A stretch of 64,000 nucleotides of DNA, taken from NCBI RefSeq assembly GCF_024502345.1, contig NZ_JALDNN010000002.1; one strand, 5' to 3'. The notes below the pieces were generated by a model, which had not been told where the DNA came from, made no database searches, and saw only the letters and a list, made by a program, of their open reading frames with translations. The DNA comes from Escherichia coli. Lineage in GTDB: Bacteria > Pseudomonadota > Gammaproteobacteria > Enterobacterales > Enterobacteriaceae. Position numbers and translations under genes: made by a program. Below, in pieces: positions 2,544 to 64,000 of the stretch (within the stretch, counting starts at the first letter, position 1; each line of letters opens with the position of its first letter).

Positions 2544-2555
2544 TGCGAAATTGAT

Positions 2556-34768: not shown

Positions 34769-35022
34769 GCTTTTTTTAATATGTCCCGTTCGTCGGTAAC
34801 CCGCTTCAGCTCTTTCTGGAGACGGCGGATCTCGGCCTGAGCATCTGACTGTTCTTTATTAATGGAAGGATCCGGATCGTACTTCTTTATCCAGGCGTAA
34901 AGGCTGTGGGTGGTGATATCGAGACGTGTTGCAACGCTGGCAACAGAATAACCGCGATCAACAACCTGTTTGACTGCTTCAGTTTTAAACTCTTCGGGAT
35001 GACGCTTACCGCTCATGGGCAC
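34769..35022 (-). pseudogene. IS3-family OrfA, 3'-truncated
   Basis: MPMSGKRHPEEFKTEAVKQVVDRGYSVASVATRLDITTHSLYAWIKKYDPD... ends inside the IS26 IR. Confidence 0.8.
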
Positions 35023-35079
35023 CTCTCTTTAAGCCATCTTAAATGACTCGGAGGTGTCTGTTAAACCCGTGGCGATTCA
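34769..35079 (-). mobile_element. IS3-family fragment (left IR plus 5' part of orfA), truncated by IS26
   Basis: IR revcomp tgaatcgccacgggtttaacagacacctccgag resembles the IR of fragment X at 17530; OrfA-like N-terminus. Confidence 0.75.
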
Positions 35080-35330
35080 AGAGAAAGAACATTCTGAATT
35101 CATCCGCCAGTTCATCCGGGAACGGCTCTGGCAGGTAGTGCCCGCAGTCATACATGACCGACCTGATAACGTCTGGCCTTCTTCGCTCAGTAACGTTTTG
35201 TGTCCAGGACGTCAGTCTTCACAGCTGTCAAATCAACGCTATTTCATAAGGCGGCTCACGTTTTTATGTCATGAGCCGCGCTTTTCCGGCTGGAACGTTC
35301 CACCCACTCGGTCACTGTGATTTAATATGC

Positions 35331-35342
35331 TAAACCGGTTTA
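35331..35342. promoter_or_regulatory. candidate ScrR operator palindrome TAAACCGGTTTA upstream of scrK
   Basis: Perfect 12-bp palindrome about 30 bp upstream of scrK. Confidence 0.6.
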
Positions 35343-35370
35343 ATTAAGTTTAGCTTTGGAGGGTTTTAGC

Positions 35371-36294: not shown

Positions 36295-36344
36295 TCCTAA
36301 ATACCGTCGTACGCGGTCCACTTTGTTGCATCCATCACACTTAT

Positions 36345-36356
36345 TAAACCGGTTTA
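36345..36356. promoter_or_regulatory. candidate ScrR operator palindrome TAAACCGGTTTA (scrY promoter, site 1)
   Basis: Identical 12-bp palindrome. Confidence 0.6.
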
Positions 36357-36402
36357 GCAAAATCAATTTCAAAATGTTAAATGTCGTGCTTAACATTGCA
36401 AC

Positions 36403-37977
<1,575 letters not shown>

Positions 37978-38114
37978 TGGTTAACACCTGGCGACAGTAA
38001 CCGCCGGGGCGACAAAATACGTTTCGTCGCCCCGGACACAATAACAACGAAGAGAATGCGCTCCGGCTACCACGGGACGACAACTCGAAAATCAATACGC
38101 ATTCAGAGGGTACT

Positions 38115-39485: not shown

Positions 39486-40885
39486 TGTCACATCCATCAC
39501 GCCTGCCTGCGATTTTGCAGGCTGTTATGCAGGGCCAGCCGCGCGCGCTGGCCGACAGCCACTATCCCCGCTGGCACCATGCGCCGGTGACCGGGCTGAT
39601 GAACGATCCCAACGGCTTTATTGAATTTGCCGGACGTTATCACCTGTTTTATCAGTGGAACCCGCTCGCCTGCGATCATAAGTTCAAGTGCTGGGGGCAC
39701 TGGAGCTCTGCCGACCTGCTGCACTGGCAACATGAGCCGATCGCGCTCATGCCGGATGAAGAGTATGACCGCAACGGCTGCTACTCCGGAAGCGCCGTGG
39801 ATAGTCAGGGCACGCTCACCCTGTGCTATACCGGCAACGTAAAATTTGACGACGGCAGCCGAACCGCGTGGCAGTGCCTGGCGACGGAAAATGCCGACGG
39901 CACGTTTACCAAACTCGGCCCGGTATTACCGCTGCCGGAGGGCTATACCGGCCACGTGCGTGACCCGAAAGTCTGGCAGCACGAAGGTCGCTGGTACATG
40001 GTGCTGGGCGCACAGGATTTGCAAAAGCGTGGCAAGGTGTTGTTATTCAGCTCAGCGGACCTTCATGAGTGGACGAGTCAGGGCGAAATCGCCGGTTATG
40101 GCATCAATGGCCTGGACGACGCGGGCTATATGTGGGAATGCCCGGACCTGTTTGCCCTCGGCGACCAGCATATTCTAATCTGCTGTCCGCAGGGGATTGC
40201 CCGTGAGGAAGAGTGCTACCTGAACACCTACCCGGCAGTATGGATGGCGGGCGAGTTTGATTACGCTGCTGGCGCTTTCAGACACGGCGAACTGCACGAA
40301 CTGGACGCCGGGTTTGAGTTCTACGCCCCGCAAACCATGCTTACCAGTGATGGCCGTCGTCTGCTGGTCGGCTGGATGGGCGTGCCGGAGGGCGAAGAGA
40401 TGCTTCAGCCGACCCTGAACAACGGCTGGATCCATCAGATGACCTGCCTGCGTGAGCTGGAGTTTATCAACGGTCAGCTCTATCAGCGTCCGCTACGGGA
40501 ACTGAGCGCCCTGCGCGGTGAAGCGAACGGCTGGTCGGGGAACGCCCTGCCGCTGGCACCGATGGAAATCGATTTGCAAACCCGCGGGGGCGATATGTTG
40601 AGCCTCGATTTTGGCGGCGTATTAACCCTTGAGTGCGATGCCAGCGGACTCCGCCTGGCCCGACGCAGTCTCGCCAGTGACGAGATGCATTATCGTTACT
40701 GGCGCGGAAACGTCCGCTCGCTGCGTGTTTTCATCGACCAGTCGAGCGTGGAGATTTTCATAAACGGCGGTGAAGGGGTGATGAGCAGCCGCTACTTCCC
40801 GGCCTGCTCCGGTCAGCTAACATTCTTCGGCATCACGCCGGACGCATTCTGCTACTGGCCGCTGCGAACTTGCATGGTAGAATAA
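39485..40885 (+). CDS. scrB: sucrose-6-phosphate hydrolase ScrB (GH32)
   Basis: 466 aa; GH32 motifs ...GLMNDPNGF..., ...WECPD... Confidence 0.95.
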
Positions 40886-40914
40886 GCGTTTTGCTTCAGG
40901 CTCATGGCGTCGTA

Positions 40915-41919
40915 ATGAAAACCAAACGCGTAACCATTAAAGATATAGCCGAACAGGCTGGCGTCTCCAAAGCGACCGCCAGCTTGGTACTGAATGGTCG
41001 TGGCAAGGAGCTGCGCGTGGCGCAGGAAACGCGTGAGCGCGTACTGTCGATTGCCCGTAAGCATCACTATCAGCCAAGCATTCATGCCCGCTCGCTGCGC
41101 AACAACCGCAGCCACACCATCGGGCTGGTGGTGCCGGAGATCACCAACCACGGCTTTGCGGTCTTTGCCCATGAGCTGGAGATGCTGTGCCGCGAGGCGG
41201 GCGTCCAGCTGTTGATCTCTTGTACTGATGAAAACCCCGGTCAGGAGAGCGTGGTGGTCAATAATATGATTGCCCGCCAGGTCGACGGGATGATCGTCGC
41301 TTCCTGTATGCACAACGATGCCGACTATCTCAAACTCAGCCAACAGCTGCCAGTGGTGCTGTTTGACCGGTGCCCCAATGAAAGCGCGCTGCCGCTGGTA
41401 ATGACCGATTCGATTACCCCAACGGCGGAACTGATTTCCCGCATCGCGCCTCAGCATAGCGATGAGTTCTGGTTTTTAGGCGGTCAGGCGCGTCTGTCGC
41501 CCTCCCGCGATCGTCTGACCGGGTTCACGCAGGGTTTGGCTCAGGCGGGTATTGCCCTGCGCCCGGAATGGGTGATCAACGGCAATTACCACCCCAGCTC
41601 CGGCTATGAGATGTTTGCCGCACTCTGCGCGCGCCTTGGGCGGCCGCCTAAGGCGCTATTCACCGCCGCCTGCGGGCTGCTCGAAGGGGTTCTGCGCTAT
41701 ATGAGCCAGCACCATTTACTCGATTCCGATATTCATCTGACGAGCTTTGACGATCACTATCTTTATGATTCGCTGTCGCTGCGTATCGACACTGTCCAGC
41801 AGGATAATCGCCAGCTGGCCTGGCACTGCTACGATCTGATAAGCCAGCTGATCGAGGGCGATACGCCCGAAACGCTACAACGCTACCTGCCCGCAACGCT
41901 GCAGTTTCGGCATCAGTAA
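40915..41919 (+). CDS. scrR: LacI-family sucrose repressor ScrR
   Basis: 334 aa from ATG 40915 ([28 protein letters not shown]...); the longer track ORF is an upstream over-extension. Confidence 0.9.
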
Positions 41920-42302
41920 TAACTGAGTATTTTTGAATAGCGACGCTGGATGCCGATTGGTCTGAACGGCCCGGCGATCGCCGGGCATACCATTGGCGCC
42001 GGCATCGTGCTGGTAACGACCATATTAGGGCGTTTGAGCAGTTGCCTGGCCTCACGCAGGGAGACTGGATTAACTGACCGCTGACAAAATGCCTGACAAT
42101 GACAGTCCGTTTTGTGCCAGATATAGTCATTCACACCCTGAGAGTTACACTTTTAAGTGATTCAGGGTATGCGCTTATTGGTTACGAATATTGTGCCAGA
42201 ATCATGTGATTCGATGATTGCCGCTTTGCTTTCGAGCCAGTAAGTGCTCCACGTTCGCTAACGAATACTCAGGGCATGCAGAAAAACGGTAATGACTCCA
42301 AC

Positions 42303-42806
42303 TTATTGATAGTGTTTTATGTTCAGATAATGCCCGATGACTTTGTCATGCAGCTCCACCGATTTTGAGAACGACAGCGACTTCCGTCCCAGCCGTGCCA
42401 GGTGCTGCCTCAGATTCAGGTTATGCCGCTCAATTCGCTGCGTATATCGCTTGCTGATTACGTGCAGCTTTCCCTTCAGGCGGGATTCATACAGCGGCCA
42501 GCCATCCGTCATCCATATCACCACGTCAAAGGGTGACAGCAGGCTCATAAGACGCCCCAGCGTCGCCATAGTGCGTTCACCGAATACGTGCGCAACAACC
42601 GTCTTCCGGAGCCTGTCATACGCGTAAAACAGCCAGCGCTGGCGCGATTTAGCCCCGACGTATCCCCACTGTTCGTCCATTTCCGCGCAGACGATGACGT
42701 CACTGCCCGGCTGTATGCGCGAGGTTACCGACTGCGGCCTGAGTTTTTTAAATGGCGGAAAATCGTGTTGAGGCCAACGCCCATAATGCGGGCGGTTGCC
42801 CGGCAT
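42303..42806 (-). CDS. insB: IS1 InsB
   Basis: 167-aa ORF. Confidence 0.9.
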
Positions 42807-43000
42807 CCAACGCCATTCATGGCCATATCAATGATTTTCTGGTGCGTACCGGGTTGAGAAGCGGTGTAAGTGAACTGCAGTTGCCATGTTTTACGGCAGT
42901 GAGAGCAGAGATAGCGCTGATGTCCGGCGGTGCTTTTGCCGTTACGCACCACCCCGTCAGTAGCTGAACAGGAGGGACAGCTGATAGAAACAGAAGCCAC
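42725..43000 (-). CDS. insA: IS1 InsA
   Basis: 91-aa [25 protein letters not shown]... Confidence 0.95.
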
Positions 43001-43073
43001 TGGAGCACCTCAAAAACACCATCATACACTAAATCAGTAAGTTGGCAGCATCACCCCCGGTAATGACTCCAAC

Positions 43074-43577
43074 TTATTGATAGTGTTTTATGTTCAGATA
43101 ATGCCCGATGACTTTGTCATGCAGCTCCACCGATTTTGAGAACGACAGCGACTTCCGTCCCAGCCGTGCCAGGTGCTGCCTCAGATTCAGGTTATGCCGC
43201 TCAATTCGCTGCGTATATCGCTTGCTGATTACGTGCAGCTTTCCCTTCAGGCGGGATTCATACAGCGGCCAGCCATCCGTCATCCATATCACCACGTCAA
43301 AGGGTGACAGCAGGCTCATAAGACGCCCCAGCGTCGCCATAGTGCGTTCACCGAATACGTGCGCAACAACCGTCTTCCGGAGCCTGTCATACGCGTAAAA
43401 CAGCCAGCGCTGGCGCGATTTAGCCCCGACGTATCCCCACTGTTCGTCCATTTCCGCGCAGACGATGACGTCACTGCCCGGCTGTATGCGCGAGGTTACC
43501 GACTGCGGCCTGAGTTTTTTAAATGGCGGAAAATCGTGTTGAGGCCAACGCCCATAATGCGGGCGGTTGCCCGGCAT
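43074..43577 (-). CDS. insB: IS1 InsB
   Basis: 167-aa ORF identical to copy c in the track. Confidence 0.9.
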
Positions 43578-43771
43578 CCAACGCCATTCATGGCCATATC
43601 AATGATTTTCTGGTGCGTACCGGGTTGAGAAGCGGTGTAAGTGAACTGCAGTTGCCATGTTTTACGGCAGTGAGAGCAGAGATAGCGCTGATGTCCGGCA
43701 GTGCTTTTGCCGTTACGCACCACCCCGTCAGTAGCTGAACAGGAGGGACAGCTGATAGAAACAGAAGCCAC
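43496..43771 (-). CDS. insA: IS1 InsA
   Basis: 91-aa ORF identical to copy c. Confidence 0.95.
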
Positions 43772-43807
43772 TGGAGCACCTCAAAAACACCATCATACAC
43801 TAAATCA

Positions 43808-44805
<998 letters not shown>

Positions 44806-44830
44806 TTAGTTTGATCGACTTTAGCCATAT

Positions 44831-45633
44831 TCAATAATCCTTCAAGAGCACTTTATTTGCCAAAGTATTGAACACATCCTGACGGTGGCATGTAAACATA
44901 GTGTCGTAACGCAGTAATTCCATTAAAACGTCACTAACTTTACCCAAACGAATATCGGCAGATATTTCGTATGCCCAAGCAAATACCTTTGATTTTAGCG
45001 TAGCACTGTCATCCCCCAGACCTGGCGTAAAGGGAATTGTTCGTGGAAAGAGAACGACATCATTAATTAATTTAAGTGATGACATCCCGACATCTTTTAT
45101 TGCCTCCACGGTGGTAGGTTTTAATCCAAAAAAGATACTAACAAACTCAGGTGCAAGCATTGACATAAAGAAAACTTGCATTAAGTAATCATTTTGAATG
45201 TCTACACACTTAGAACGTAGTTGCTGAATTTTTCTCGGATTATAAAATTCCTCCTGCCCGCTGAGCAAAGTTACTTTTTCACCTTCATTGTAAATGCCGA
45301 AGTCAGTATCTTCACTGTCATATTCTCGAATGACGTTAGTGTCGCCATCAACTACAGCTACAAAGAATTTGTCCCAAGAGATCTCTTTACTTAAAGAACG
45401 AGGAACGAGGAAGCTTCCTGGCCGAGTTTCAACTTCAAATGCATTATCAATCATAGCTCCAAATCCATTACCAAATAGTCGGCGTTGGAGGAGTGGTGAT
45501 CCAGTTTGATACTTAGAAGATCCATGAAGAGGCAATAACATTAAGAAGGCACGGTAACTACGAATAATCGAAATCTCGGTACGTAATAGTTTACCGAGTA
45601 AGTTACGCGTGATGTTATCTGATTCTGACATGT
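44831..45633 (-). CDS. hypothetical protein (267 aa), no recognised family
   Basis: ATG at 45633 preceded by AAGGA RBS; long ORF with coding-like composition; possible D...E-x-K segment (...FVAVVDGD...NEGEKV...). Confidence 0.6.
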
Positions 45634-45954
45634 GCGGATTGTCCTTGCGCCAATACAATTGTACGAATCTTCTACATGAAATTAAGGTCTGGATTCTGAA
45701 GGATGAAAAGTAACTTTTGGAATTTTAATACTGCCGCTTTGAACCTTAAAACTAACCTTTCAGCCATTACCCATACTTGTAACACTTTTTAACCAAACTA
45801 ACCAGAATTTTATCAAAAAACCCTGACCTTGCTAACGAAATGTGAACCGTATAAAAAAACCTCAAAGCCTGAGTCGTTATCGGCATTAAGTAGCAATAAC
45901 CTTAGGGAAAAATGCGCGTAAGCATGATTATTTTTTCGATTGTTTAACATGACT

Positions 45955-46130
45955 ACTACATAGGGTCACTTTTTGCTGAAAAGTGGCCCTATGCACCATC
46001 GACATAGGGTCACTTCTTGATGAAAAGTGACCCTATGTAATCACGACATAGGGTCACTTTTTTTAAAAGTGGCACTATGCGTCAAAATCATAGGGTCACT
46101 TTCCTTTAAAAAGTGGCACTAGATAGATGT
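45955..46130. repeat. array of four imperfect ~35-bp palindromes (CATAGGGTCACTTTT ... AAAAGTGaCCCTATG) at about 44-bp spacing
   Basis: Directly visible; lies between the divergent 267-aa gene and the 46389 operon. Confidence 0.9.
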
Positions 46131-46388
46131 ATAACTTAGTAGGTAAAACAGTTCTTTTCAGATCACGATCTCAGCAATAAGCATTGCTGGAAAAGTTACT
46201 TTTCTTCCACGATAAAATGCGGACCTTTTGGCCGTTCCCGTTTACATCTGATGTCACTCACTCTCAGTGCTTCCTCCATTCTTAAATTTGCCATGCAAAA
46301 TTCTCGAAAAAATTCACAGAAAAAAGTCCCGTTCGTGAAAAAAAATTGAAAATCACTTCGGTATAGTGATTTCACATCAGGAGGCCCC

Positions 46389-46874
46389 ATGTCTAAATCG
46401 AAGCTATTAAAGTCATTAGAGATTTCACGTACTTTATTGCGCTCACAAATCGATGTTCTTCGAGAAGAGGCTGAAGAACTGATCACCAATTATTGGATCG
46501 AGTGGAAAGAACGGAATCACATTGAGAGGAATTTACCCAGGGATAGCAAAACTCTAAAGAAGGAGTATCTGGGTTCATATGCACCAAAAGTTGAGCTAAT
46601 TGGTAATGCCAGGAAAGTCACCATTACCTGGCATCAGTTTAGCCCGTATAAAAACAGGCCACCTAGTCACATGTCGAAACGGATTTCACCGATGAAAAGT
46701 GGAAAATATACGAAAAGCTGCTTTGTTAATCATGCCAGCTGGGAATATGAAATGATTGAAAAAACGGAGGGATTACTGGAACCCTACAGAGAATTACTTG
46801 AGTTCTACCATGCTGCATATATCGAACTGGGACGAAAAGTCCGTCAATACTCAAAATCAGAGGTGGCACAATGA
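46389..46874 (+). CDS. hypothetical protein (161 aa)
   Basis: AGGAGG RBS 7 bp upstream; no recognised family. Confidence 0.6.
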   Translation: MSKSKLLKSLEISRTLLRSQIDVLREEAEELITNYWIEWKERNHIERNLPRDSKTLKKEYLGSYAPKVELIGNARKVTITWHQFSPYKNRPPSHMSKRISPMKSGKYTKSCFVNHASWEYEMIEKTEGLLEPYRELLEFYHAAYIELGRKVRQYSKSEVAQ

Positions 46875-47189
46875 CCGATGTAACAATGAATGAAAGCGAG
46901 CATAAGGTACCTGACGTAAATACCCGCTCCCCTCATGCGTCCGATAATAGCCGTAGGGTCGTGCAAAGTAAAAATGAACATTACGGCATGGCTACAGTAA
47001 CTATTACCCCAGGCACGCCAGACTTTAACCGATTTCTCACGGCACGTAATCGTTCCGTAATAAGAGGGTTTGATGATGTCAGTATTGCCATTTCATCCTT
47101 ATTCAGAACGGTCAATGCAGTTAAGCACCCCGAACTAGTGCAGGCAATTCAAGACTGGTTCAATGAATTGCACGAAGAAAATAATCTAA
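46871..47189 (+). CDS. hypothetical protein, 3' end disrupted or capped by ISKpn26 copy E
   Basis: Start overlaps upstream stop (ATGA); frame runs into the IS left end at 47190. Confidence 0.5.
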
Positions 47190-48385
<1,196 letters not shown>

Positions 48386-48472
48386 ATAGCTAAACATGAT
48401 TTCCCCATCAAACAGTAAGTCGTGTCAATTCCTAGAGTTAACACATTTCTGATCATGACTCACACGTTACGT

Positions 48473-49494: not shown

Positions 49495-49532
49495 GGGGTC
49501 GGTTCCGGCTGAGGGCGAAATGACACCCTAAG
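49495..49532. repeat. Tn3-family 38-bp terminal IR (GGGGTCGGTTCCGGCTGAGGGCGAAATGACACCCTAAG) overlapping tnpA stop
   Basis: GGGG...CTAAG architecture with the tnpA stop codon inside the IR. Confidence 0.7.
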
Positions 49533-52419
49533 CTTTCGGTTCCTTGGGCCAAAGATATTCGCCAGTCAGTAGAATGTGCGCCCAGCCCAATGGGGATATG
49601 TGGGGAAGAAATTCAGGGGGAACATCCAACCCTTCGTTCCGCCGCTCCGTGACGGCATGACCAAGATGGACGGTATTCCAGTAAATGATCACCGCAGTCA
49701 ATAAATTGAGCCCAGCGATTCGGTAGTGCTGCCCCTCTGTCGTGCGATCGCGAATTTCCCCCTGCCTCCCGATACGGAGCGCATTTTTGAGCGCATGGTG
49801 GGCCTCTCCCTTGTTAAGACCGATCTGAGCACGCCGCTGCATGTCCGTATCCAGGATCCACTCAATAATGAAAAGGGTCCGTTCAATACGACCAACTTCA
49901 CGAAGCGCAACTGCAAGGTTGTTTTGTCGTGGGTAAGAAGCGAGCTTGCGCAGGAGTTGGCTGGGCCTGATTTTGCCAGCGGTCATCGTCGCGGCACAAC
50001 GGAAAATATCAGGCCAGTTCGCAACGATAAGATCCTCCCGGGCTTTTCCACCTACCAACTTGCGTAACTCCCTGGGGGTCGTATCGGGATTAAATACGTA
50101 CAACCGCTTCGATGGCAGATCCCTGATTCGCAGAACGAGATTGTAGCCGAGCAGGCTACTGGCTCCGAACAAATGGTCGGTGAATCCTGCTGTATCGGCA
50201 TACTGTTCGCGAACATGGCGACCGACCTCGTTCATCAGTAGTCCATCGAGAATATACGGTGCCTCGCTCACGGTCGCCGGGATCGACTGACAAGCGAATG
50301 GCGCGAACTGGTCGCTTACGTGAGTATACGCTTTGAGGCCGGGAACAGAACCATATTTGGCATTGACCATGTTCATGGCTTCGCCATGCCGCGCTGTCGG
50401 GAAAAACTGACCATCGCTCGATGCTGACGTGCCCATCCCCCAGACGCGTGACATCGGCAGTTTACCCTGCGCGGCCACCACAATTGCCAATGCCTGGTTC
50501 ATGGCTTCGCTTTCAACATGCCAGCGGGCAAGGCGTGAGAGCTGCCAGTAATCATGCGTGTTTGTAGCTTCCGCCATCTTACGCAGGCCCAGATTGAGCC
50601 CTTCAGCGAGCAGGACGTTGAGCAGACCGATCCGGTCGCGACATGGAGCCCCGGTTCTCAGATGGGTAAACGCATCTGTGAAACCAAGGGCTGCATCAAC
50701 TTCAAGCAGCATGTCGGTAATCCGAACGGACGGCATTCGGCGATACAGATCCAGTATGAGTGCCTCGGCACCATCCGGCACGTCTGCTGTCAACCTGTCG
50801 ATCCGCAACGTTCCATCTTCTATGCTACCGTGCGGAATAGTGCCGTTACGGGCAGCCCGGGCCAGCCGCTTAAGAGCGATCGTGAGTCGCGCCTTTCTGT
50901 CTGCCAGCCAATCCTGTGGGTTGGAAGGCACGGCCAGTTTTGCATTTTCCTGCGCCGCGATCATCGGCACCAGTACCTGCTTGAGGTCACCATAGCGGCG
51001 CGAATGAGCGAGCCAGACATCTCCGGAACGAAAAGCATCCCGGAGGTGAAAGAGTACCGCCACTTCCCAAAGACGGGTATCTCCTTTTTCCTGAGCTCGT
51101 AAATGACGGTTCCATTTGGAGCTGGGCCGCAGGAAACGCCTTTCTGGCGATGCAACACCTTTCATCTCTCCGATCGACAAAGCTGCTGCTACCAATGGTC
51201 CGGCGACCGGCGCGGCTTCGAGCTTCAGACAGCGCAACATGCGGGGCGCATAACGACGAAAGCGATGGTATCCCTGCCCGACATATGCAAGAGGCTCATC
51301 GGCTAGCGTGTTGCTGAGTTGAGTCCCTGTCGCTACCAGTTGAGCGAGCCGGTCCCATGCAACCGAACTGGCGACAGCCATCTCCAGCGGGGTTCCGTCA
51401 CTGCGGGCCTCAAGCAACGAAGCTCCCAGCGCGGTGAAGGTACGGATCGTATCCGTGAGTGTGGCTTTAGAGCCGGAAATTGTTTCGTCATGCTGGCGCT
51501 TCGCTTCCCGCCAGGTTTTTCCTACGATCCTGTCATGGGTTTCGACTATGGCATCAGCAATCGCCGCTTCCCACTCCACAACACAGACGGCAAGGATCGC
51601 CCAGCGGCGGTCCGAAGTGATGTCACGCAAACCGTCGGTGAAGTAGCGTTCACCCTGCCGACGCAGCCGGGCAATGCGATGGGCAGGTATGCTGGCCAAA
51701 GCACTATGATTGATATTCAGGGTACGCAGAAATTCGAGCCTGTCGAGCAAACGGTTAGCAGCAGCCGAGTTGTTACCAACCTCGAAGTTGCGAAGCCAGA
51801 TGAAACGACTGATATTGCCGGCGAGCATTTCACTCAGAAGTTTGTCCAGGTGATCGCGAACATCCGCTGTTAAATTTTCCGCAATCCGCGTTTCAATCCG
51901 CCGCTCAGCGGCGACCAGAGCATCCGCGCACAAGCGCTCGATTGTCGATACTGCGGGCAGAATGGTGGAAGTTTCCCGACACCGCACAATAAAACGATGA
52001 GCAAGATCCTCGTTTGATCTGGCATCTTCGGCCTGGCCGAAAGTCCACTCCCGCAGATCACGGGCACCACGGCCCGTGAAGGTCTTGTAGCCGTAAATTT
52101 CGCGCAGCGTGTCCATGTGCTGCTGACGGGTTTGGCGCCGTGTGGCATAAGTGAGAAGCGCATCAGCCGGAACTCCAAGCTGAGCACCGACGAAGGAAAG
52201 GACTTCACGCGGGATCATCTCACCAGGAGCCAGTGCACGGCCCGGATATCGTAAGGCACAAAGTTGCAGGGCAAAGCCAATCCTGTTTTCCGGTCTGCGG
52301 CGCTGCCTAATGTTTTCCAGGTCATCATCGCCCAGCGTGTAGAACTTCAGTAGCGACAGTTCGTCCGTGGGCAGATCGAACAGCGCTGCTCGCTGCCGTT
52401 CGGTGAAAATATGGCGTCG
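49528..52419 (-). pseudogene. tnpA: Tn3-family transposase TnpA, 5'-truncated by IS26 (about 960 of ~1000 codons remain)
   Basis: 896-aa track ORF with upstream frame open to the IS26 boundary; conserved C-terminal blocks (...GMGTSASSDGQFF..., ...LSPLGWAHILLTGEYLW...). Confidence 0.9.
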
Positions 52420-53239
52420 GGCACTGTTGCAAAGTTAGCGATGAGGCAGCCTTTTGTCTTATTCAAAGGCCTTACATTTCAAAAACTCTGCTTACCAGGC
52501 GCATTTCGCCCAGGGGATCACCATAATAAAATGCTGAGGCCTGGCCTTTGCGTAGTGCACGCATCACCTCAATACCTTTGATGGTGGCGTAAGCCGTCTT
52601 CATGGATTTAAATCCCAGCGTGGCGTCGATTATCCGTTTCAGTTTGCCATGATCGCATTCAATCACGTTGTTCCGGTACTTAATCTGTCGGTGTTCAACG
52701 TCAGACGGGCACCGGCCTTCGCGTTTGAGCAGAGCAAGCGCGCGACCATAGGCGGGCGCTTTATCCGTGTTGATGAATCGCGGGATCTGCCACTTCTTCA
52801 CGTTGTTGAGGATTTTACCCAGAAACCGGTATGCAGCTTTGCTGTTACGACGGGAGGAGAGATAAAAATCGACAGTGCGGCCCCGGCTGTCGACGGCCCG
52901 GTACAGATACGCCCAGCGGCCATTGACCTTCACGTAGGTTTCATCCATGTGCCACGGGCAAAGATCGGAAGGGTTACGCCAGTACCAGCGCAGCCGTTTT
53001 TCAATTTCAGGCGCATAACGCTGAACCCAGCGGTAAATCGTGGAGTGATCGACATTCACTCCGCGTTCAGCCAGCATCTCCTGCAGCTCACGGTAACTGA
53101 TGCCGTATTTGCAGTACCAGCGTACGGCCCACAGAATGATGTCACGCTGAAAATGCCGGCCTTTGAATGGGTTCATGTGCAGCTCCATCAGCAAAAGGGG
53201 ATGATAAGTTTATCACCACCGACTATTTGCAACAGTGCC
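52420..53239 (-). mobile_element. IS26 copy 3 (820 bp), transposase variant, no TSD
   Basis: 14-bp IRs; flanks tggcgtcg vs gcgagaag. Confidence 0.97.
52472..53176 (-). CDS. tnpA: IS26 transposase variant (M58I, G184D relative to copies 1 and 2)
   Basis: ...[10 protein letters not shown]... and ...[10 protein letters not shown]... versus ...APEMEK... / ...KRIIGATLGF... Confidence 0.95.
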
Positions 53240-54471
53240 GCGAGAAGGTTTTCAGGCCGGATTTGCGCGGCAAACCTGTCGTCGTTCTCAGTAACAACGA
53301 TGGCTGCGTTATTGCCCGGAGTGCTGAAGCCAAACGGCTGGGTATAAAGATGGGAACCCCCTGGTTCCAGCTCAAAGAGGCGCAGTTTCCTGAAAAATTG
53401 TACGTTTTTTCCAGCAACTACGAGCTCTACGCGAGCCTGAGTAACCGTGTGGTCGCCCTGCTGGAAGAGCTGTCGCCCCGCGTCGAACAATACTCAATTG
53501 ACGAATGTTTCCTGGATGCCCGGGGAATTGGCCACTGTATGGATCTGGAGGATTTTGGCAGGCAGCTGCGTGGGCATGTTCTCAGTGGAACCGGACTGAC
53601 GATCGGTGTCGGCTTCGGCGCCACAAAAACACTGGCCAAATCGGCGCAGTGGGCGTCAAAGGAATGGCCACAATTCAGTGGGGTGCTGGCGCTGTCGCCC
53701 GAAAATCCACGCAGAACGGCAAAATTACTCAGCCTGCAGCCGGTGGAAGAAATCTGGGGCGTAGGGAACCGGATAGCGAAAAAGCTGCACGTTATGGGGA
53801 TCACCACTGCCCTGCAGCTGTCGCTGACGAACCCTACATTTATCCGGAAAAACTTCAACGTAGTGCTGGAGCGCACGGTACGTGAGCTGAACGGCGAGAG
53901 CTGCATTTCGCTGGAGGAAGCGCCGCCGCCGAAACAGCAGATTGTCTGCAGTCGCAGCTTCGGGCAGCGGATCACCACCTACGAAGAAATGCGCCAGGCC
54001 GTCTGCCAGTATGCCGAGCGCGCGGCGGAAAAGTTGCGCGGTGAGCGACAGTACTGCCGGCATATCAGCACCTTCATCAAGACATCCCCTTTTGCGGTTA
54101 ATGAGCCGTATTACGGTAACGTGGCCACGGAAAAACTGAACACCCCTACCCGTGACACCCGGGACATTATCGCGGCAGCGGTCAGGTCTCTGGACAGGAT
54201 CTGGCTCGATGGCCACCGCTACGCAAAAGCGGGGATAATGCTCAATGATTTCAGTCCGAACGGCGTCGCGCAGCTGAATCTGTTCGATGACGTGCAGCCA
54301 CGGCCGCACAGCGATGCGCTGATGAAGGTACTCGACGGCATTAATCATTCCGGACTCGGGAAAGTCTGGTTTGCCGGACGGGGTATTGCGCTGGACTGGC
54401 AGATGAAACGGGAGATGCTGTCACCGGCATATACCACCCGCTGGAAGGAGCTGCCGGTTGCCCGTTTCTGA
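53240..54471 (+). pseudogene. umuC: second UmuC-family Y-polymerase gene, 5'-truncated by IS26 (no umuD partner)
   Basis: Reading resumes at ...[20 protein letters not shown]... right at the IS26 end; about 16 N-terminal codons missing. Confidence 0.9.
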
Positions 54472-54549
54472 CCGTCGAAATGACAGACGGGACTTGCCGC
54501 AAGAGCTTACTTTACCGATCATACAGATGACTTGTCTCAGGGGGGAACC

Positions 54550-54801
54550 ATGACAAATATCATTCTGTGTGATGTGACTGCCAGCATCAGCGAACTTAAA
54601 AACGATCCGGTGGCCACCGCCAGTGCCGGCGGCGGCTACCCGGTCGCGATTATTGACCGCAACCGCCCTGTTTTTTATTGTGTGCCCGCGGCTCTGTATG
54701 AACAAATGCTCGATGCGCTGGACGAAAAAGACCTGGTGCAATTGATAACAGAACGTCAAAACCAGCCGCTGCGTGAAGTGGATCTCAATCAGTATCTGTG
54801 A
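54550..54801 (+). CDS. type II antitoxin-like protein (Phd/YefM/YafN family)
   Basis: ...TASISELKNDPVATA...PVAIIDRNRPVFYCVPAALYEQMLDALDE... resembles YafN/Phd from memory. Confidence 0.6.
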   Translation: MTNIILCDVTASISELKNDPVATASAGGGYPVAIIDRNRPVFYCVPAALYEQMLDALDEKDLVQLITERQNQPLREVDLNQYL

Positions 54802-54854
54802 TGTGCTCCGGTGCGAGGAGCAAGGAATGTATTAAATCAATGTTAAGGAACAAT

Positions 54855-55160
54855 ATGGGTAGCAAAATCGCAGGTGTGGTTTTCTTATTCTTCACTGTCT
54901 GGGGAATGGCTTCAGTGATTGAATTGCAGTACTGGCGTAACGCTGATACCTATCCTGTCTGGCTGACAAAACATCTCCGGATCTCTCCCGAAAATAACGA
55001 AAAGAGCCTGATAAGGATAGGAATGGAAACCTTTGACAAGGTATGTGGTGATAACAGGGGCCTCCTTGCCGTCACCCAAAAACAAAACGGTATGTTTATG
55101 CGCTGTGATGATTCCCCCGGATTTTTTTCATGGTTCAGCGGCGTTTACAAAGTCAGTTAA
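54855..55160 (+). CDS. small protein with N-terminal hydrophobic segment (101 aa), unknown function
   Basis: ATG 54855 with AAGGAA RBS; MGSKIAGVVFLFFTVWGMASV...; not RelE/ParE/YafO-like. Confidence 0.45.
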   Translation: MGSKIAGVVFLFFTVWGMASVIELQYWRNADTYPVWLTKHLRISPENNEKSLIRIGMETFDKVCGDNRGLLAVTQKQNGMFMRCDDSPGFFSWFSGVYKVS

Positions 55161-55633
55161 TCAGATAACGTGTTGGACTTTCAATATGTTACCCACACGG
55201 TTATCCCCCGTTACTGTGGATAATCAATATATTGTGTCTCAGACAGCTGCTTTTTCTACCATATGTTGTGTCCCTGATATCCCCTCGGACGGCGTGACAA
55301 ACGACATCATACTGGAGACGCTGATGACGGGACCATGTTCATCCAGGGTCGTAAGAACGGCCGGGACTGGTTACCGGCCGGACGAAGGACCGGCCAACGC
55401 GCAGCGGCGGCAGCTGGTTTTAAAAATGCTGGCGGAAATTTAAAATTAAGCCGCACACCCCGCGAAATTTTGCAAATTTCACTCAACATGCTTCGTTCAG
55501 ATCCCAACAGAGCTTTCACCATCACCTGTAATAGCCGCCCTGCTGCGTGATTACTCCGCTCAACAAGTTGCTGGCGACAAGCCAATACCTGTTCGTGACA
55601 GGCATTGCTTAACCGTTGTCCCAAACTAATAAT

Positions 55634-56100
55634 GTGCCGACGATGCAGGTGGGACCGTGGTCCCAGGCAGATTACCTGACCGACGATGCAGGTGGGACCG
55701 TGGTCCCAGGCAGATTACCTGACCGATGACGCAGGTGGGACCGTGGTCCCAGACAGATAACCTGACCGACGACGCAGGTGGGACCGTGGTCCCAGACAGA
55801 TTACCTGACCGATGACGCAGGTGGGACCGTGGTCCCAGACAGATAAGCTGACCGATGACGCAGGTGGGACCGTGGTCCCAGGCAGATAACCTGACCGACG
55901 ACGCAGGTGGGACCGTGGTCCCAGTCAGATAACCTGACCGATGACGCAGGTGGGACCGTGGTCCCAGACAGATTACCTGACCGACGACGCAGGTGGGACC
56001 GTGGTCCCAGGCAGATAACCTGACCGATGACGCAGGTGAGACCGTGGTCCCAGGCAGATAACCTGACAGACGATGCAGGTGGGACCGTGGTCCCAGAGAG
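55634..56100. repeat. sopC: sopC-type centromere: about 11 tandem 43-bp repeats each with TGGGACCGTGGTCCCA inverted repeat
   Basis: Tandem units ...cgatgcaggtgggaccgtggtcccaggcagattacctgacc... Confidence 0.9.
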
Positions 56101-56184
56101 AATATTCAGGCCAGTTATGTTTTCTGGCCTGTGAGAAAGGAAATGAAGTAAAGGGAGATAACCGTAGACTAAAGCGTGTCCGCA

Positions 56185-57156
56185 TTAGACTCCTGGTTTC
56201 TCAAGCTCCTTAAGAATGGCTTCTATTTTCTCTATACACTCCGCAGGAATGCGGGACCGATCTAGGTTAAGCACTATTTTATCGCCCTTATACAATGCTG
56301 TTGCCCCTGGAGCAAACTGATGACGTGAACTCAGATTAACTCTTGATGCGCGAGATTGTTTCAGTACGGATGTTAAAAGACTAATGACCTCTTCAGCTTC
56401 AAAGATTAGTCCCGCTTTCTTCTGATCGTGGAGAGTCTCAGCCTGCTGCTTCAGTAATTCTTCTTTATCTGCAAAAGCCTTCTGAAGGGCTTCACCTGAC
56501 CGGGCAGACAGTTCTCCAGGATGTGCAAACAGGGCAACAACTGATTTAGGCAGTTTGGCCGTATTGATACAGCGGGTAATGATCTTACGAGAGATGTTTT
56601 CCGCATCGGCAAGCGCAGAAATATTTCCGGCAAACTCATTCTGCAGCCGGCTTGTATAACGCAGGCCACGTTCATAAGCACTCGTCGGCCGATAATCGTT
56701 ACCCAGCCGGGACAATGCAGCCATCTGCTCGTCGTCCAGTTCACCAACCAGAATGCGATAATCACTTTCCGTCAGGATTGCGGCTTTACGGCGACGGCTG
56801 CCGTCTGCAATTTCTATGACATCAGAAACCCAGCGGCCGAAAGCTGGAGTCTGCTGACCGGTCAGTAAAAATGAAGGTATGAGATCATCCAGAGCATCTT
56901 CGGTAAGTAGTTCCTGATCACGCTCATTTCCTGACCATACGCGTGAGGCGCTCTCAACAGACTCTCCCCGGAGCACCTCAAGGGTAAATTTTACTTCCCG
57001 TCCACATACCGGAAGAGAGATAGCATTACCGCGGGCCATAGCACCCACGCGCGCAATTAATGAATCCACCATCGGCGCGGCCGGCGCCGGTGATGAAGTA
57101 TCTTCAGTCGATTGAGTATGTGTGGTATGCCTTGGAATGACAGGGGCACGCTTCAT
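56185..57156 (-). CDS. sopB: partition protein SopB (ParB family)
   Basis: 323 aa matching F-plasmid SopB from memory. Confidence 0.95.
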
Positions 57157-58331
57157 TATCTAATCTCCCAGCGTGGTTTAATCAGACGATCAAAAATCTC
57201 ATTACAAACAGGTTCCCAGATTGAAAGTGCGTTTCGCCATGCGCCGGTCGAAGAACGTTGATCAATCGCCTGTTCGAAAACGGTTCTCATGCGGATCTGG
57301 CCTTTACCAACTTCATCGGTTTCACGTACCACATTTTTAAGAACCATGCTTCCCCATGCATCGCGAATTTGTTCTTCCATCCACGGTGACTGCGAACCAT
57401 TGTTATTACTGTATTTGGTAAGCAGAATACGGACATCCGGCTCAAAGCCTTTAAGATCCACATTCCTGAGCAGATCACGAAGCATATCGAAAAACTGCAG
57501 TGCAGAAGTGTAATCGAACAGCTCTGCCGGGGTGGGAACAATCAGCACATCAGCAGCGCATACGACATTGATCGTGCCAATACCGAGGTTCGGTGCGCTG
57601 TCGATAACAATCACATCATAGTCATGAGCGACCGTTTCAATAGCAAGGCGGAGCATCAGATGCGGGTCGGTGGGCAGTTTTCCTTCATCAAATTTGCCCA
57701 TCAGTTCAGTTTCAATGCGATGCAGTGCCAGGCAGGACGGAATGATATCAAGGCCAGGCCAGCAGGTTGGTTTTATCGCATAACTGGCATCATCCTTTTC
57801 ACCAAGATAAAAGGGCAGGAGAGTATCTTCCGCGTGTATATGAAGATCGGGCACCCATCCGTGATACATCGAGGCTGTGCCCTGAGGATCATTACCCTCG
57901 ACAAGCAGAACGCGTAATCCTTTCAGGGCCAGGTCCTGAGCCAGGTGAACAGAAACGGAGGTTTTGTAAACACCACCTTTGTGAGCAGCAACACCAATCA
58001 CCGGCGGAAACGCATCTTCAGCACGGCGCAGTCGTGTACCAAATACATCCCGCATGTGATTGATTTGCTCGATGGTATAACCAACGCGTTGCTCAACTCT
58101 TCCACGGGTTTCCATATCAGGGTGAGGCAGCCGGCCAGCTTTCTCGGCATCCCTGATAGCCTGAGATGACACGCCAACTAAATCAGCTGCTTCACCAATC
58201 CTCCAGCGCCGGGTTATTTTCCGGGCTTCCGGACTGTCATCATTAAACTGCGCAATGGCGATTGCTTTCGTCATTTCATGACCAGCACTTATGCACTGGT
58301 TGAGTGTATCCATGAGTCCCATACTGAACAT
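57156..58331 (-). CDS. sopA: partition ATPase SopA (ParA type Ia)
   Basis: 391 aa; Walker A ...[10 protein letters not shown]...; near-identical to F SopA as recalled. Confidence 0.95.
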
Positions 58332-58827
58332 CCTTTAATCATCACTTTGCATTATTTTATTAAATCTTGGAATTTATTGCAAAGCAACAATAAAGACGCA
58401 AAGTGCACGAAAAAGTGCAAAGTGAACCGCATTGGGTGATGCAAAGACCGCAGGGGAGTACAAAAGAGTACATACCGCAGCCAATATTAATCACTGCCGC
58501 TCGCCGCAGTAAGCGATCTCACGGAGTGAGAAAGCGGCGAGGAAGCGGAAAATCACAGAATTCACAGATTGCACGTACGTCGGGTTGCTTAAGATGGCTC
58601 GGGATCAGCCAGTTATAATGAAATTGACTGCGATATGTAATATATTGACTGTGGCATGATACTTACTGTATCTGTGTCGAGAAAGAGGAAAGACGACTCA
58701 GCATACCGCAGTCAATGTTTCATTGTTGTACCTGTAGATCTCAATCTTCCAGAGCGTATTCAGGAAAATCAGGCCAGGGTTCTGGATACCTGGTGAACCG
58801 CCCCGGTAATCCTGGAGACTACACTCT

Positions 58828-59169
58828 TTGAGAGAGGTAACCAGGATGACAAAACATAACCGATTTCCCCCTGAAGTTCGTCAACGCGCTATTCGTATGG
58901 TTCTGGAAAACCAGAATACCTACAACTCACAATGGGCCGCTATCTGCTCCATTGCCCCTAAGATCGGCTGCACTCCCGAGACATTGCGTATCTGGATCCG
59001 TCAGCAGGAGCCCGTTGATGATGAGCAGAATGCGCTGACTGCCAGCGAACGCCAGCGTCTGAAAGAACTGGAGCGGGAAGTCCGCGAGCTGCGCCGCAGC
59101 AATGATATTCTGCGTCAGGCTTCAGCGTATTTTGCCCAGGCGGAGCTCGACCGCCACTGGAAAAAATAA
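58828..59169 (+). CDS. IS3-family transposase OrfA
   Basis: ...RFPPEVRQRAIRMVLENQNTYNSQWAAICSIAPKIGCTPETLRIWIRQQ... Confidence 0.9.
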   Translation: MREVTRMTKHNRFPPEVRQRAIRMVLENQNTYNSQWAAICSIAPKIGCTPETLRIWIRQQEPVDDEQNALTASERQRLKELEREVRELRRSNDILRQASAYFAQAELDRHWKK

Positions 59170-59583
59170 TGCCGCTTCTGGAAAATCTGAGCGGTGAACA
59201 CGGGGTCGGGCCAGTCTGTCATGAGCTGGATATTGCTCCGTCAACGTACTACTGGCATCAGCAACGCCGGAAGTGTCCTGAACGACGCAGTAGTCGGGAT
59301 AAACGCGATGCCGTGCTGATACCTGAGATACAGCGCGTATACGAAGAAAACTACAGCGTTTACGGTGTGCGTAAGGTCTGGCGACAGCTAAAACGTGAAG
59401 GTGTCGGCGTTGCCCGCTGCACCATTGAGCGCCTGATGAAAGCCCTGCAGCTACGTGGGGTGACACGCGGCAAAAGTGTCAGAACCACCCGCAGCAACAA
59501 AGCCGAAACACCGCAGGATCGGGTGAACAGGCAGTTCGTGGCTGAACGGCCCGATAGTCTTTGGGTGGCCGATTTTACCTACG
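59169..59583 (+). pseudogene. IS3-family OrfB, exon-1 part (interrupted by group II intron after ...FTY)
   Basis: ...ERPDSLWVADFTY then intron GTGTG. Confidence 0.85.
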
Positions 59584-60254
59584 GTGTGCCCGGAGTTCAG
59601 GGCGGGCATGGATGCTTAAATGAACCGCGAGTCTGTCTGGAATATTGAACCGGTAACTCACGATGAGAAACCCAACAATCCCACCGGGTGTGACGGTGGA
59701 GAACCTGAGCGGCAGTGACCTGCGGCATGCCCGCAGGGTGATGTAACCCGCTGACAACGGGGATTGAGGCGAGATCACTAAGCCGAGATGATCCTCAAGG
59801 TTAAGTACTGAAAGGCTGAAGAACATGAACCCGTTAATCCGCCTCTGTGGGTTGAAAACGTCACCACGGCCTACGTGATCTGACAGGCCGTGCAGGAGGA
59901 ACTGGCAGTGATACGTAAGCACTGCCGGTCGAAGGTGTTTTGACATGTATGCGAAACACCGGGGCAGCAGCGTCTATCACGCTTGCGTTGCTGACTTCTG
60001 CCAACTTGCGGCAAGCAAGGATAAAGAGTGCGACGGGCAGCCTCCTCAGTATGCCTGAGTCCAGGCAGGTAAACCGGGGAAGGTCAGCGACGGATGTTAA
60101 GGGGGCATGGCTCCGATGACGCGCTGGCTGGCGGAGCTTCCGTAGTAGTCCGCGATGGGGAAAGCCCATTACATGGCGAAGGGAAGCAGTTTGAATGTGT
60201 TTGCGACGTGAATTAACTGACCTAACGAGGTGAAGACCTTTGATAATCAGCGAA

Positions 60255-60390
60255 ATGCAACGCAAGCTTGCCACATGGGCAGCCACCGATCCGTCCCTAC
60301 GGATTCAACGGCTGCTGCGTCTGATAACACAACCAGAATGGCTGGCTGAAGCGGCGCGGATCACGCTTTCATCAAAGGGGGCCCATACCC
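60255..60390 (+). pseudogene. intron RT/maturase, N-terminal 45 codons (split by IS186)
   Basis: MQRKLATWAATDPSLRIQRLLRLITQPEWLAEAARITLSSKGAHT; continues in frame at 61741. Confidence 0.8.
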
Positions 60391-61729
60391 CATAAGCGCT
60401 AACTTAAGGGTTGAACCATCTGAAGAATGCGACGCCTCGGTGCCTCGTTAAGACGATGCCTCGCGTTCTTCAATTGCGTTTTGTAGGCTGTCAGGGATAC
60501 TGTCCCACGAATGGCCACCTGTAAGCTCCAGATGACCATTTTTGTTATTCTCCACAACGAGTTAGTTCTTCTTTTCGGATCCGGCACTTCTGGGGGGGAA
60601 ATCCAGCGATGGCTGGATTATGTCGTCAATTAAAAATGCGGCGAGTAGATTAGCAAATATCCACGCTTTCGCGAGTTCAGGTTCCTTTGCACGCAAAGCA
60701 TCCAGGTGCAGCAAACTTTTGAGCCGCTTAAAAGCCAGTTCAATTTGCCATCGCAGACGGTAACAATCAGCCACTTGCTCTGCTGAATATTCATCTTCCG
60801 GTAATGATGTTAGCAATAGCACATGGCCCGCTGCTTCCAGCGTTTCCGCCTGAACTACTCGTCCTTTTCGACGATTCTCGCTGAGCAGTCGGGTTTTACT
60901 GATTAATGCTTTTTCGGGAGGAAGTGATACGGCAATGAGACGTGCCGGAAAGGGAGCTCCGGCTTTTTTATTACCTGAATTGCCTATCATTACAGTGGTT
61001 TCACCGTTCTTACCGCAATCCAGCCCGCGCAGAAAACCCATCATGTCAAAGCGCATTCCTTCTGCAGTTAACCAGCGCAATCCTCGCCAGTGAACCCGGA
61101 CGATATAATCAGCTTCTCCAAAAGCAAGTGAGCGGATACATTCGGGACGCGAACCGAATCCCCGGTCAGCAATGCGTATCTCGTCTGCCGTTTGCGCAAA
61201 TCGGTCCAGCCGTTCAGCGTCTCTGCTGTCGGTTAGCTCAAAATCAGTGAACTGACAGGTATGAGGATCATATCCCATATGTAGTCGCCATTCAGCGCTG
61301 CCGCCCCCGGGCGCACTGATTGCTGTTCCATCGACAAGACGCAATCTCTTTCCGCTTGTACAACCCGTAACTGCGGCGCGCACAGCAAGTGTTTGTGCGG
61401 CAAGTATGCCAAACCAGTCGGCGGCATTCCGCAGCCGCTTCAGGAGAGCCACGTCAGATAATGTTGCAACGTCATGGAGCTGAGCCCATGCAGTGACTTC
61501 ACGTAATGACATCCCCCCGGGGCCGTAAGCCAGCCCCAGACGTAGCAGAGTTGCAGCATCACGAATTTCGCGGCGGCGGGTTAGAGCCCCGGCATTACGT
61601 GCCGAAGTATCCAGTTCTTCGGGCTTACCAATATGGGCCAGAATTGCTGACCAGTTATCGTGAGAGTAATTCATCGGCACGTTAAATCATATCAGGCGTA
61701 ATACCACAACCCTTAAGTTAGCGCTTATG
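60391..61729 (-). mobile_element. IS186 (1339 bp) with 11-bp TSD GGCCCATACCC
   Basis: IRs cataagcgctaacttaagggttg / revcomp; ggcccataccc at 60380-60390 and 61730-61740. Confidence 0.9.
60562..61680 (-). CDS. IS186 (IS4-family) transposase
   Basis: 372-aa ORF MPMNYSHDNWSAILAHIGKPEELD... Confidence 0.9.
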   Translation of the reverse strand: MPMNYSHDNWSAILAHIGKPEELDTSARNAGALTRRREIRDAATLLRLGLAYGPGGMSLREVTAWAQLHDVATLSDVALLKRLRNAADWFGILAAQTLAVRAAVTGCTSGKRLRLVDGTAISAPGGGSAEWRLHMGYDPHTCQFTDFELTDSRDAERLDRFAQTADEIRIADRGFGSRPECIRSLAFGEADYIVRVHWRGLRWLTAEGMRFDMMGFLRGLDCGKNGETTVMIGNSGNKKAGAPFPARLIAVSLPPEKALISKTRLLSENRRKGRVVQAETLEAAGHVLLLTSLPEDEYSAEQVADCYRLRWQIELAFKRLKSLLHLDALRAKEPELAKAWIFANLLAAFLIDDIIQPSLDFPPRSAGSEKKN

Positions 61730-61740
61730 GGCCCATACCC

Positions 61741-63113
61741 CCGGCGTTGATGGCGTGAACAAAACAATGCTACAGGCCAGACTGGCTGTTGAGCTGCAAA
61801 TCCTCAGGGATGAATTACTCTCAGGCCACTACCAGCCCTTGCCCGCCAGACGGGTTTACATCCCTAAAAGCAACGGCAAACTGCGACCACTGGGTATCCC
61901 CGCGTTGCGGGATCGTATTGTTCAGCGGGCCATGCTGATGGCGATGGAGCCGATATGGGAGAGTGATTTTCATACGCTCTCATATGGCTTCCGGCCTGAG
62001 CGCAGTGTCCACCACGCGATCCGCACGGTGAAATTACAGCTCACAGACTGTGGTGAAACCCGGGGACGCTGGGTGATTGAAGGCGACCTGTCCAGTTACT
62101 TCGACACCGTACATCATCGACTGCTGATGAAGGCTGTACGCCGCAGGATCAGTGACGCACGTTTCATGACTCTGCTGTGGAAAACCATCAAGGCGGGACA
62201 TATCGATGTCGGTCTCTTTCGGGCGGCCAGTGAAGGTGTGCCACAGGGCGGTGTTATATCGCCGCTATTATCGAACATCATGCTGAATGAGTTCGATCAA
62301 TACCTGCATGAGCGCTACCTGAGCGGGAAAGCCAGAAAAGATCGGTGGTACTGGAATAACAGTATCCAACGGGGCCGAAGTACGGCGGTCAGAGAAAACT
62401 GGCAGTGGAAACCCGCGGTGGCGTACTGCCGCTATGCCGATGATTTTGTCCTCATCGTCAAAGGCACCAAAGCACAGGCGGAAGCCATCAGGGAGGAGTG
62501 TCGGGGTGTGCTCGAAGGCAGTCTGAAACTCAGGCTGAACATGGATAAGACTAAAATCACCCATGTTAATGACGGCTTTATCTTTCTGGGGCACAGGATC
62601 ATTCGCAAACGCAGTCGTTATGGCGAGATGCGAGTGGTCTCAACGATCCCGCAGGAGAAAGCCAGAAACTTCGCCGCATCGCTGACAGCACTGTTATCAG
62701 GCAACTACAGTGAAAGCAAAGTCGATATGGCTGAACAACTCAACCGAAAACTGAAAGGCTGGGCCATGTTCTATCAGTTCGTTGATTTTAAGGCCAAAGT
62801 CTTCAGTTATATCGACCGTGTCGTGTTCTGGAAGCTGGCTCACTGGCTGGCCCGCAAATACCGTACAGGTATCGCTTTCCTGATGAGGTGGTGGTGTAAA
62901 CCACCGAAACCGGGTCAGAGCAAAACGTGGGTTTTATTTGGTAAAACCAATCACGGCAAGCTCAGCGGCGAAATACTGTACCGGTTGGTGGGGCAAGGTA
63001 AGAAGCTGTTCCGCTGGCGGCTACCCGAAGGTAATCCCTATCTGAGGACGGAGACCAGAAACACGTATACATCGCGCTTTACAGAAGTGGCAATGGCGTT
63101 CGCCAGCATTTAA
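61741..63113 (+). pseudogene. intron RT/maturase, C-terminal part
   Basis: ...PGVDGVNKTMLQ... RT domains with YADD (...YCRYADDFVLIV...) and maturase region. Confidence 0.85.
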
Positions 63114-63118
63114 ATGGA

Positions 63119-63152
63119 GAGCCGGATGCGCTGAAAGGTGCACGTCCGGTTC
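63119..63152 (+). ncRNA. group II intron domain V (GAGCCGGATGCGCTGAAAGGTGCACGTCCGGTTC)
   Basis: Canonical domain V hairpin with AGC triad and GAAA tetraloop, 6 nt after the RT stop. Confidence 0.85.
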
Positions 63153-63203
63153 GGGGAGGAGAGGCAGGGAAATAGTCCGACTACGCCCTGCCTCTTACTC
63201 TAC

Positions 63204-63676
63204 TCAGCACCTGGCAGGGGTTCGCATATGTGGCCTTCATCATTGATGTGTTCGCCGGTGTTATCGTGGGCTGGCGGGTCTCATCCACGATGGAAACGTC
63301 GTTCGTGCTGGATGCACTGGAGCAGGCGCTGTGGGCCAGACGCCCGAGCGGTACCATCCATCACAGCGACAAAGGTTCGCAATATGTGTCACTGGCGTAC
63401 ACGCAACGGCTGCAGGACGCGGAGCTGCTGGCTTCAACAGGCAGCACGGGCGACTCATATGACAATGCGATGGCAGAAAGTATCAACGGGTTGTACAAAG
63501 CGGAGGTGATCCACAGGCAAAGCTGGAAAACCCGACAGGATGTTGAGCTGGCTACGCTGAAATGGGTGGACTGGTACAATAATCACCGATTGATGGAACG
63601 GACCGGATATATCCCGCCAGTGGAGGCAGAAAAAGCCTATTACGCTTCGCTGAATGACCGGGATGTGGCAGCCTGA
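63204..63676 (+). pseudogene. IS3-family OrfB, exon-2 part
   Basis: ...AFIIDVFAGVIVGWRVSS...HSDKGSQYVS... Confidence 0.85.
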
Positions 63677-64000
63677 TCACTCAGGCAAAATACTCTCCAG
63701 GAAAACCGGAGCGGTTCATGGTGTGGCGCTTCCGGCCTTGTATCTGAGTTATTCAAGGTCTCGATCCAATAATTGATCCCAAGGAGATCATAGTGAGATC
63801 CAAAAGAGATCCCCGGATCGCTCCAGCATGCGCTGTAACTGGCTTTAACGTCTGTCTGGATCGACTGCGGAATGTAAAATGTTGACTGTTATATGCATAA
63901 TCTAATACTGTGATATGCAACGGTATTTACTGAGGTATGTATATCCGTTGACTGCGATACGTATTACTACATCCTTTTGTGGATAACCGTTGAGGATCAA

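Follow-up and report, generated by a model that had tools for sequence, protein, structure and literature searches.

The third IS26 copy (hereafter named copy 3) in the window, i.e. the whole 64,000-nucleotide stretch of Escherichia coli contig NZ_JALDNN010000002.1 analysed here, is a real, intact and rare minor isoform of this insertion sequence. Multi-resistance regions in Gram-negative plasmids are assembled mainly by IS26. In copy 3, the transposase Tnp26 carries two substitutions, M58I and G184D. The element probably derives from a G184D allele to which M58I was added and is still competent, M58I being about neutral and G184D having a modest effect at most.

The 14-bp terminal repeat of IS26, GGCACTGTTGCAAA, occurs six times in the window, compared with 0.03 occurrences expected by chance, and these six sites delimit three intact 820-bp elements (Table 1). 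The reference for all three was standard IS26 DNA of unrelated contigs (L039, L040). Because the only change in copy 1 is non-coding and that in copy 2 is synonymous, both encode canonical Tnp26. The three copies are three distinct DNA alleles, and the allele-specific bases at window positions 3362 (copy 1, IS nt 789) and 34077 (copy 2, IS nt 129) could be used as markers of the copy involved in later rearrangements.

Table 1 Positions of the IS26 copies and of the features in and around copy 3 (window coordinates)
Feature	Position	Strand	Description
IS26 copy 1	3331-4150	-	canonical Tnp26; non-coding C at IS nt 789
IS26 copy 2	33949-34768	+	canonical Tnp26; synonymous T at IS nt 129
Tn3-family tnpA	49528-52419	-	5' end cut by IS26; profile 52-954 of 954
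IS26 copy 3	52420-53239	-	intact 820 bp; standard IS26 with T at nt 237 and A at nt 614
IRR, copy 3	52420-52433	+	adjoins truncated Tn3-family tnpA
tnp26 CDS, copy 3	52472-53176	-	234 aa and stop; Tnp26 M58I/G184D; RefSeq WP_061872725.1 (P0002)
IS nt 614 G>A	52626	-	codon GGC>GAC, G184D
IS nt 237 G>T	53003	-	codon ATG>ATT, M58I
IRL, copy 3	53226-53239	-	14-bp GGCACTGTTGCAAA; adjoins truncated umuC
umuC-like Y-family polymerase gene	53240-54471	+	5' end cut by IS26; UmuC profile 15-422 of 422

Only nt 237 and 614 separate copy 3 from standard IS26, so that 818 of 820 nucleotides and 232 of 234 amino acids are identical; relative to copy 1, the non-coding nt 789 is a further difference. The sequence thus bears out what the initial annotation had reported, namely canonical transposases in copies 1 and 2 and the M58I and G184D changes in copy 3. 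The element has the structure of an IS26, with 820 bp, perfect 14-bp inverted repeats and a single DDE transposase. In Tnp26, the N-terminus (residues 1-12) is disordered and followed by a helix-turn-helix domain (13-53), a fragment of residues 1-56 binds DNA, and D78, D138 and E173 are the catalytic residues (PMC8477213). The catalytic triad as well as F4, W50 and K180 are all conserved in copy 3, and both the N-terminal F4/F9 segment and the helix-turn-helix domain are intact. ISfinder defines isoforms by more than 95% nucleotide identity and/or more than 98% transposase similarity (PMC6807381), which places copy 3 among the isoforms of IS26 (IS6/IS26 family).

The exact 820 bp of copy 3 are present in 11 plasmids of E. 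coli and K. pneumoniae (out of 72,556 in PLSDB) and in seven E. coli complete-genome records, and the exact M58I/G184D protein is found on about 31 contigs of a public collection. Laboratory, host and country of origin vary among the records with the exact 820 bp. Errors of sequencing or assembly in the window can hence be set aside as a virtually nil explanation of the nt 237 and 614 differences, the identical 820 bp recurring in independent public plasmids and genomes; sequencing errors were one of the two outcomes that, for the initial annotation, would refute its proposal. Allele abundance was determined by exact protein look-ups counted in index blocks. Canonical Tnp26 (WP_001067855.1) gave 73,074 blocks, the G184N protein of IS26-v1 (P0166) 23,917, G184D alone (WP_001067848.1; P0167) 1,983, M58I alone (P0168; UniRef Q6RZ08_ECOLX) 380 and the double variant (WP_061872725.1) 47; G184S was found on about 20 contigs. 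G184D is therefore a widespread natural IS26 allele. Among the PLSDB matches listed for the G184D-only protein, 60 of 60 are at 100%, in more than 10 genera; the allele has many different junctions and is the only IS26 copy in several plasmids. M58I alone is a natural IS26 allele too. The novelty implied by the initial annotation does not hold: the M58I/G184D element was already known in public plasmids and in RefSeq, and belongs to the ordinary micro-variation of IS26. A scan of species-representative genomes with a G184D 43-mer gave one match, with no complete element there, and has no census value. ISfinder allele names are absent from the annotation of the records, in which all copies appear as 'IS6-like element IS26 family transposase'.

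Codon 184 forms a natural series in the sampled records (L018-L040, L052-L054), with GGC (Gly), GAC (Asp), AGC (Ser) and AAC (Asn). The Asn184 form is found with or without 459A, and one contig combines 459A with 613A, which gives Ser184 on an IS26-v1-like background. GGC to GAC and GGC to AGC are each a single G>A transition, and mutation bias alone could account for the existence of the Asp184 and Ser184 alleles.

The descent of copy 3 can be followed through its single-change relatives. The G184D-only allele is standard IS26 with 614A, whereas the M58I-only allele is standard IS26 with 237T, a base change identical to that of copy 3. Nt 237 and nt 614 thus occur in all four possible combinations, so that either a second mutation or recombination of two alleles gave rise to the double variant. 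The junction between umuC and the IRL of copy 3 (AAACCTTCTCGC|IS) also occurs in L001, L003, L010, L011 and L017. In the last of these, plasmid pRT18-1_294k_tetX (NZ_MT219824.1), this junction carries a G184D-only IS26 with a flank that matches window 53240-64000 at 100% identity, which argues that copy 3 derived from the G184D allele. On these comparisons, copy 3 is best read as a one-step derivative or a recombinant of the G184D allele at the umuC site. The source of G237T (M58I) would be either a point mutation or the natural M58I allele, through recombination.

In pRT18-1_294k_tetX, 2,551 bp of the tnpA gene that lies beside copy 3 (window 49869-52419) are found at positions 1741-4291 with 100% identity, in inverted orientation, and this stretch adjoins the G184D-only IS26 of the umuC junction. 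The arrangement suggests an IS26-associated inversion between the window plasmid and pRT18-1_294k_tetX. The IRR flank of copy 1 (window 3319-3330, CCTAATCGTGTT) forms the same junction in an unrelated chromosome, CP056396.1 (L037), where the IS26 carries M58I and 789C. The occurrence of a different allele at the CCTAATCGTGTT junction indicates exchange of IS26 alleles at fixed junctions and places an M58I donor in a related context.

Copy 3 is positioned between two truncated genes. The umuC homologue has lost about 14 initial codons and the Tn3-family tnpA about 50. An 8-bp target duplication was looked for at both flanks and is absent. The two truncations and the missing duplication identify copy 3 as a rearrangement junction in an IncFIA/FIB-type mosaic plasmid. 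Its pair of flanks is absent, as a pair, from every sampled record. A derivation of the window arrangement from the higBA/Tn3 context of most double-variant copies was considered and rejected, the tnpA beside copy 3 being a different gene. The window also holds a full-length umuC paralogue (8872-10143, minus strand; UmuC profile 1-422) in addition to the truncated one. Between copies 2 and 3, the region 34769-48400 contains a sucrose-utilisation cluster (porin, sucrose-6-phosphate hydrolase, PTS IIBC and LacI-type regulator) together with ISKpn26-like IS5-family elements, and is 99.6% identical to several E. coli plasmids. No resistance gene was noticed among the features and open reading frames checked near copy 3.

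Among the sampled records, the double-variant element has eight different left junctions, eight right junctions and 11 flank combinations. For many of these junctions, the origin may be homologous recombination of IS26 copies and not the action of the transposase. Plasmid pECO-cbb3 (NZ_CP026206.1) offers a more informative case. It holds double-variant copies at 125318-126137 and 148171-148990, in direct orientation, with CTTTCTAC to the right of the first copy and to the left of the second. When the outer flanks are joined via one CTTTCTAC, 800 of 800 positions are identical to uninterrupted ynaK-trkG, a Rac prophage region matched in more than 1,000 E. coli records. This 8-bp target duplication of ynaK, split between the two copies and confirmed by the intact target, is the signature of a copy-in cointegrate and takes the pECO-cbb3 case beyond homologous recombination between IS26 copies. 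The variant is present in both product copies, as expected if a variant donor was replicated. The same split-duplication pattern was found for two IS26-v1 copies, which supports the method. Hence, the double-variant IS26 appears to be still able to move, as judged from one copy-in event.

Canonical IS26 copies are also present in pECO-cbb3, and one of these could have supplied, in trans, the transposase that acted at ynaK. On the other hand, Tnp26 is reported to act preferentially in cis (PMC8477213), and we infer that the element's own transposase catalysed the event. No simple 8-bp duplication was found in seven plasmids that each hold one G184D copy, nor around any of the sampled copies. 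In pECO-cbb3 (L012), an inverted IS26 pair at 146652-147471 and 153852-154671, each copy with 685T, shares AGCCAGGT at one flank of each copy and may correspond to a second IS26 event.

Residues 58 and 184 were surveyed among 61 homologues with less than 90% identity. Position 58 is I in 31, L in 17 and M in 10 of them. Since Ile is the commonest residue in relatives, M58I is very likely effectively neutral. At position 184, R is found in 35 and K in 10 homologues (Arg/Lys in 45/61), and D in none. Asp being opposite in charge to the Arg/Lys of the family, a loss of DNA affinity is plausible, and an acidic residue 184 could lower it. In the AlphaFold model of the variant Tnp26 (pLDDT 91.6), residue 58 lies in helix 44-66, just past the DNA-binding N-terminal domain, and residue 184 ends helix 170-184, the helix of the catalytic E173. 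The best PDB fold matches of the model are ISCth4 transposase complexes and retroviral integrases; a PDB sequence search found no solved structure of an IS6-family transposase. In agreement with the model, G184 has been located in a loop beyond the E173 helix, the equivalent region of the ISCth4 transposase contacts the terminal repeat, and G184N may act via stronger terminal-repeat binding, as its authors propose (PMC8477213). The proposal of the initial annotation, that a change at residue 184 may alter activity, is reasonable. The evidence shows no sign of a strong effect of the change at this residue. G184D is not dead, given how widely the allele has spread, and its effect on rate is probably modest at most, in either direction. 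A literature search, with the original variant catalogues outside its scope, found no relevant paper on G184D or M58I in Tnp26 and no cointegration or DNA-binding measurements for G184D, M58I or the double variant.

G184D, with or without M58I, might be a gain of activity like G184N, in which the altered loop after the E173 helix raises cointegration and the variant spreads. The residue is the same as in the hyperactive G184N, and the GAC codon is a one-step intermediate between GGC (Gly) and AAC (Asn) that is far commoner than AGC (Ser), with 1,983 blocks as compared with about 20 contigs; the double variant also shows many junctions and at least one verified copy-in event. However, G>A transitions are common, so that abundance need not mean selection, and G184D is outnumbered 12-fold by G184N and 37-fold by the canonical form, the double variant being about 40-fold rarer again. 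In addition, Asp184 is absent in relatives, which prefer Arg or Lys, and the route proposed for G184N is better DNA binding, for which a negative charge offers no obvious help. We consider such a gain quite improbable. Another reading is that of a functional stepping stone, along the codon 184 series Gly (GGC) to Asp (GAC) to Asn (AAC), in which Asp would lead towards the hyperactive Asn and alter terminal-repeat binding or cointegration, the double variant being a further tuned derivative in IncF plasmids; this proposal is rather doubtful.

Conversely, G184D might be a partial loss of function, its negative charge weakening the binding of the terminal repeats. The basic consensus of the family at residue 184 (R in 35 and K in 10 of the 61 homologues, D in none) and the proposed contact between the loop and terminal-repeat DNA (PMC8477213) both point in this direction, as does the lack of a target duplication around copy 3. 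An element of this kind is unlikely to be what is seen here, and its persistence through plasmid inheritance, homologous recombination between IS26 copies and transposase supplied in trans by canonical copies (e.g. copies 1 and 2) is equally unlikely. Records with the double variant do almost always hold further IS26 copies, and those junctions that recur most appear to be inherited, with the higBA side in eight loci. Against this stand the reported cis preference of Tnp26 (PMC8477213), the split duplication of pECO-cbb3, which pairs two double-variant copies, and the G184D allele as sole IS26 in several plasmids, spread over more than 10 genera with many different junctions. 

If copy 3 is, as is likely, a competent isoform with a neutral M58I and a G184D of modest effect at most, its DDE transposase would bind the 14-bp terminal repeats and form cointegrates, as any IS26 does, via the replicative copy-in or the targeted conservative route. 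The element would still be a competent substrate, and its own transposase would probably be competent too.

Overall, G184D and M58I are standing natural polymorphisms of IS26, and their combination is a rare isoform that appears to be still mobile. If G184D altered activity, IS26 allele typing might help to predict the speed of plasmid rearrangement. Single-base IS26 markers are mainly useful for tracing the copies behind each rearrangement, and the double variant itself is a useful marker for strain tracing.

Standard IS26 (Tnp26 WP_001067855.1) has the same 820 bp, 14-bp repeats and 234-aa DDE transposase as copy 3, and both are found at junctions of rearranged plasmid segments. A known variant is IS26-v1, also named IS15-delta-1, with experimentally enhanced activity (Pong et al. 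2019, as cited in PMC9412624, PMC9019673 and PMC8477213). It has three base changes, two of which make G184N (PMC9412624, PMC9019673, PMC12540391, PMC8477213). DNA comparison identifies it as standard IS26 with 459A, 613A and 614A. G184N raises cointegration (PMC8477213, PMC9019673, PMC12540391, PMC9412624), and the initial annotation, which noted that this substitution raises IS26 activity, agrees here with PMC8477213, PMC9019673 and PMC12540391. Copy 3 falls outside the definition of IS26-v1, since its nt 459 and 613 are both the standard G and only nt 614 is A. Both elements share 614A, but copy 3 has Asp184 where IS26-v1 has Asn184, and copy 3 differs further in carrying 237T. The catalogued variants v1-v4, IS15DI, IS15DII and IS15DIV are described, in secondary sources, as one to three bases off with single amino-acid changes; by these descriptions, the two amino-acid changes of copy 3 set it apart. 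The M58I-only allele (P0168; Q6RZ08_ECOLX) has the same G237T as copy 3, but retains G184. The G184D-only allele (WP_001067848.1) differs from copy 3 by one base, having G at nt 237 and hence M58, and exceeds the double variant about 40-fold in abundance (1,983 vs 47 index blocks).
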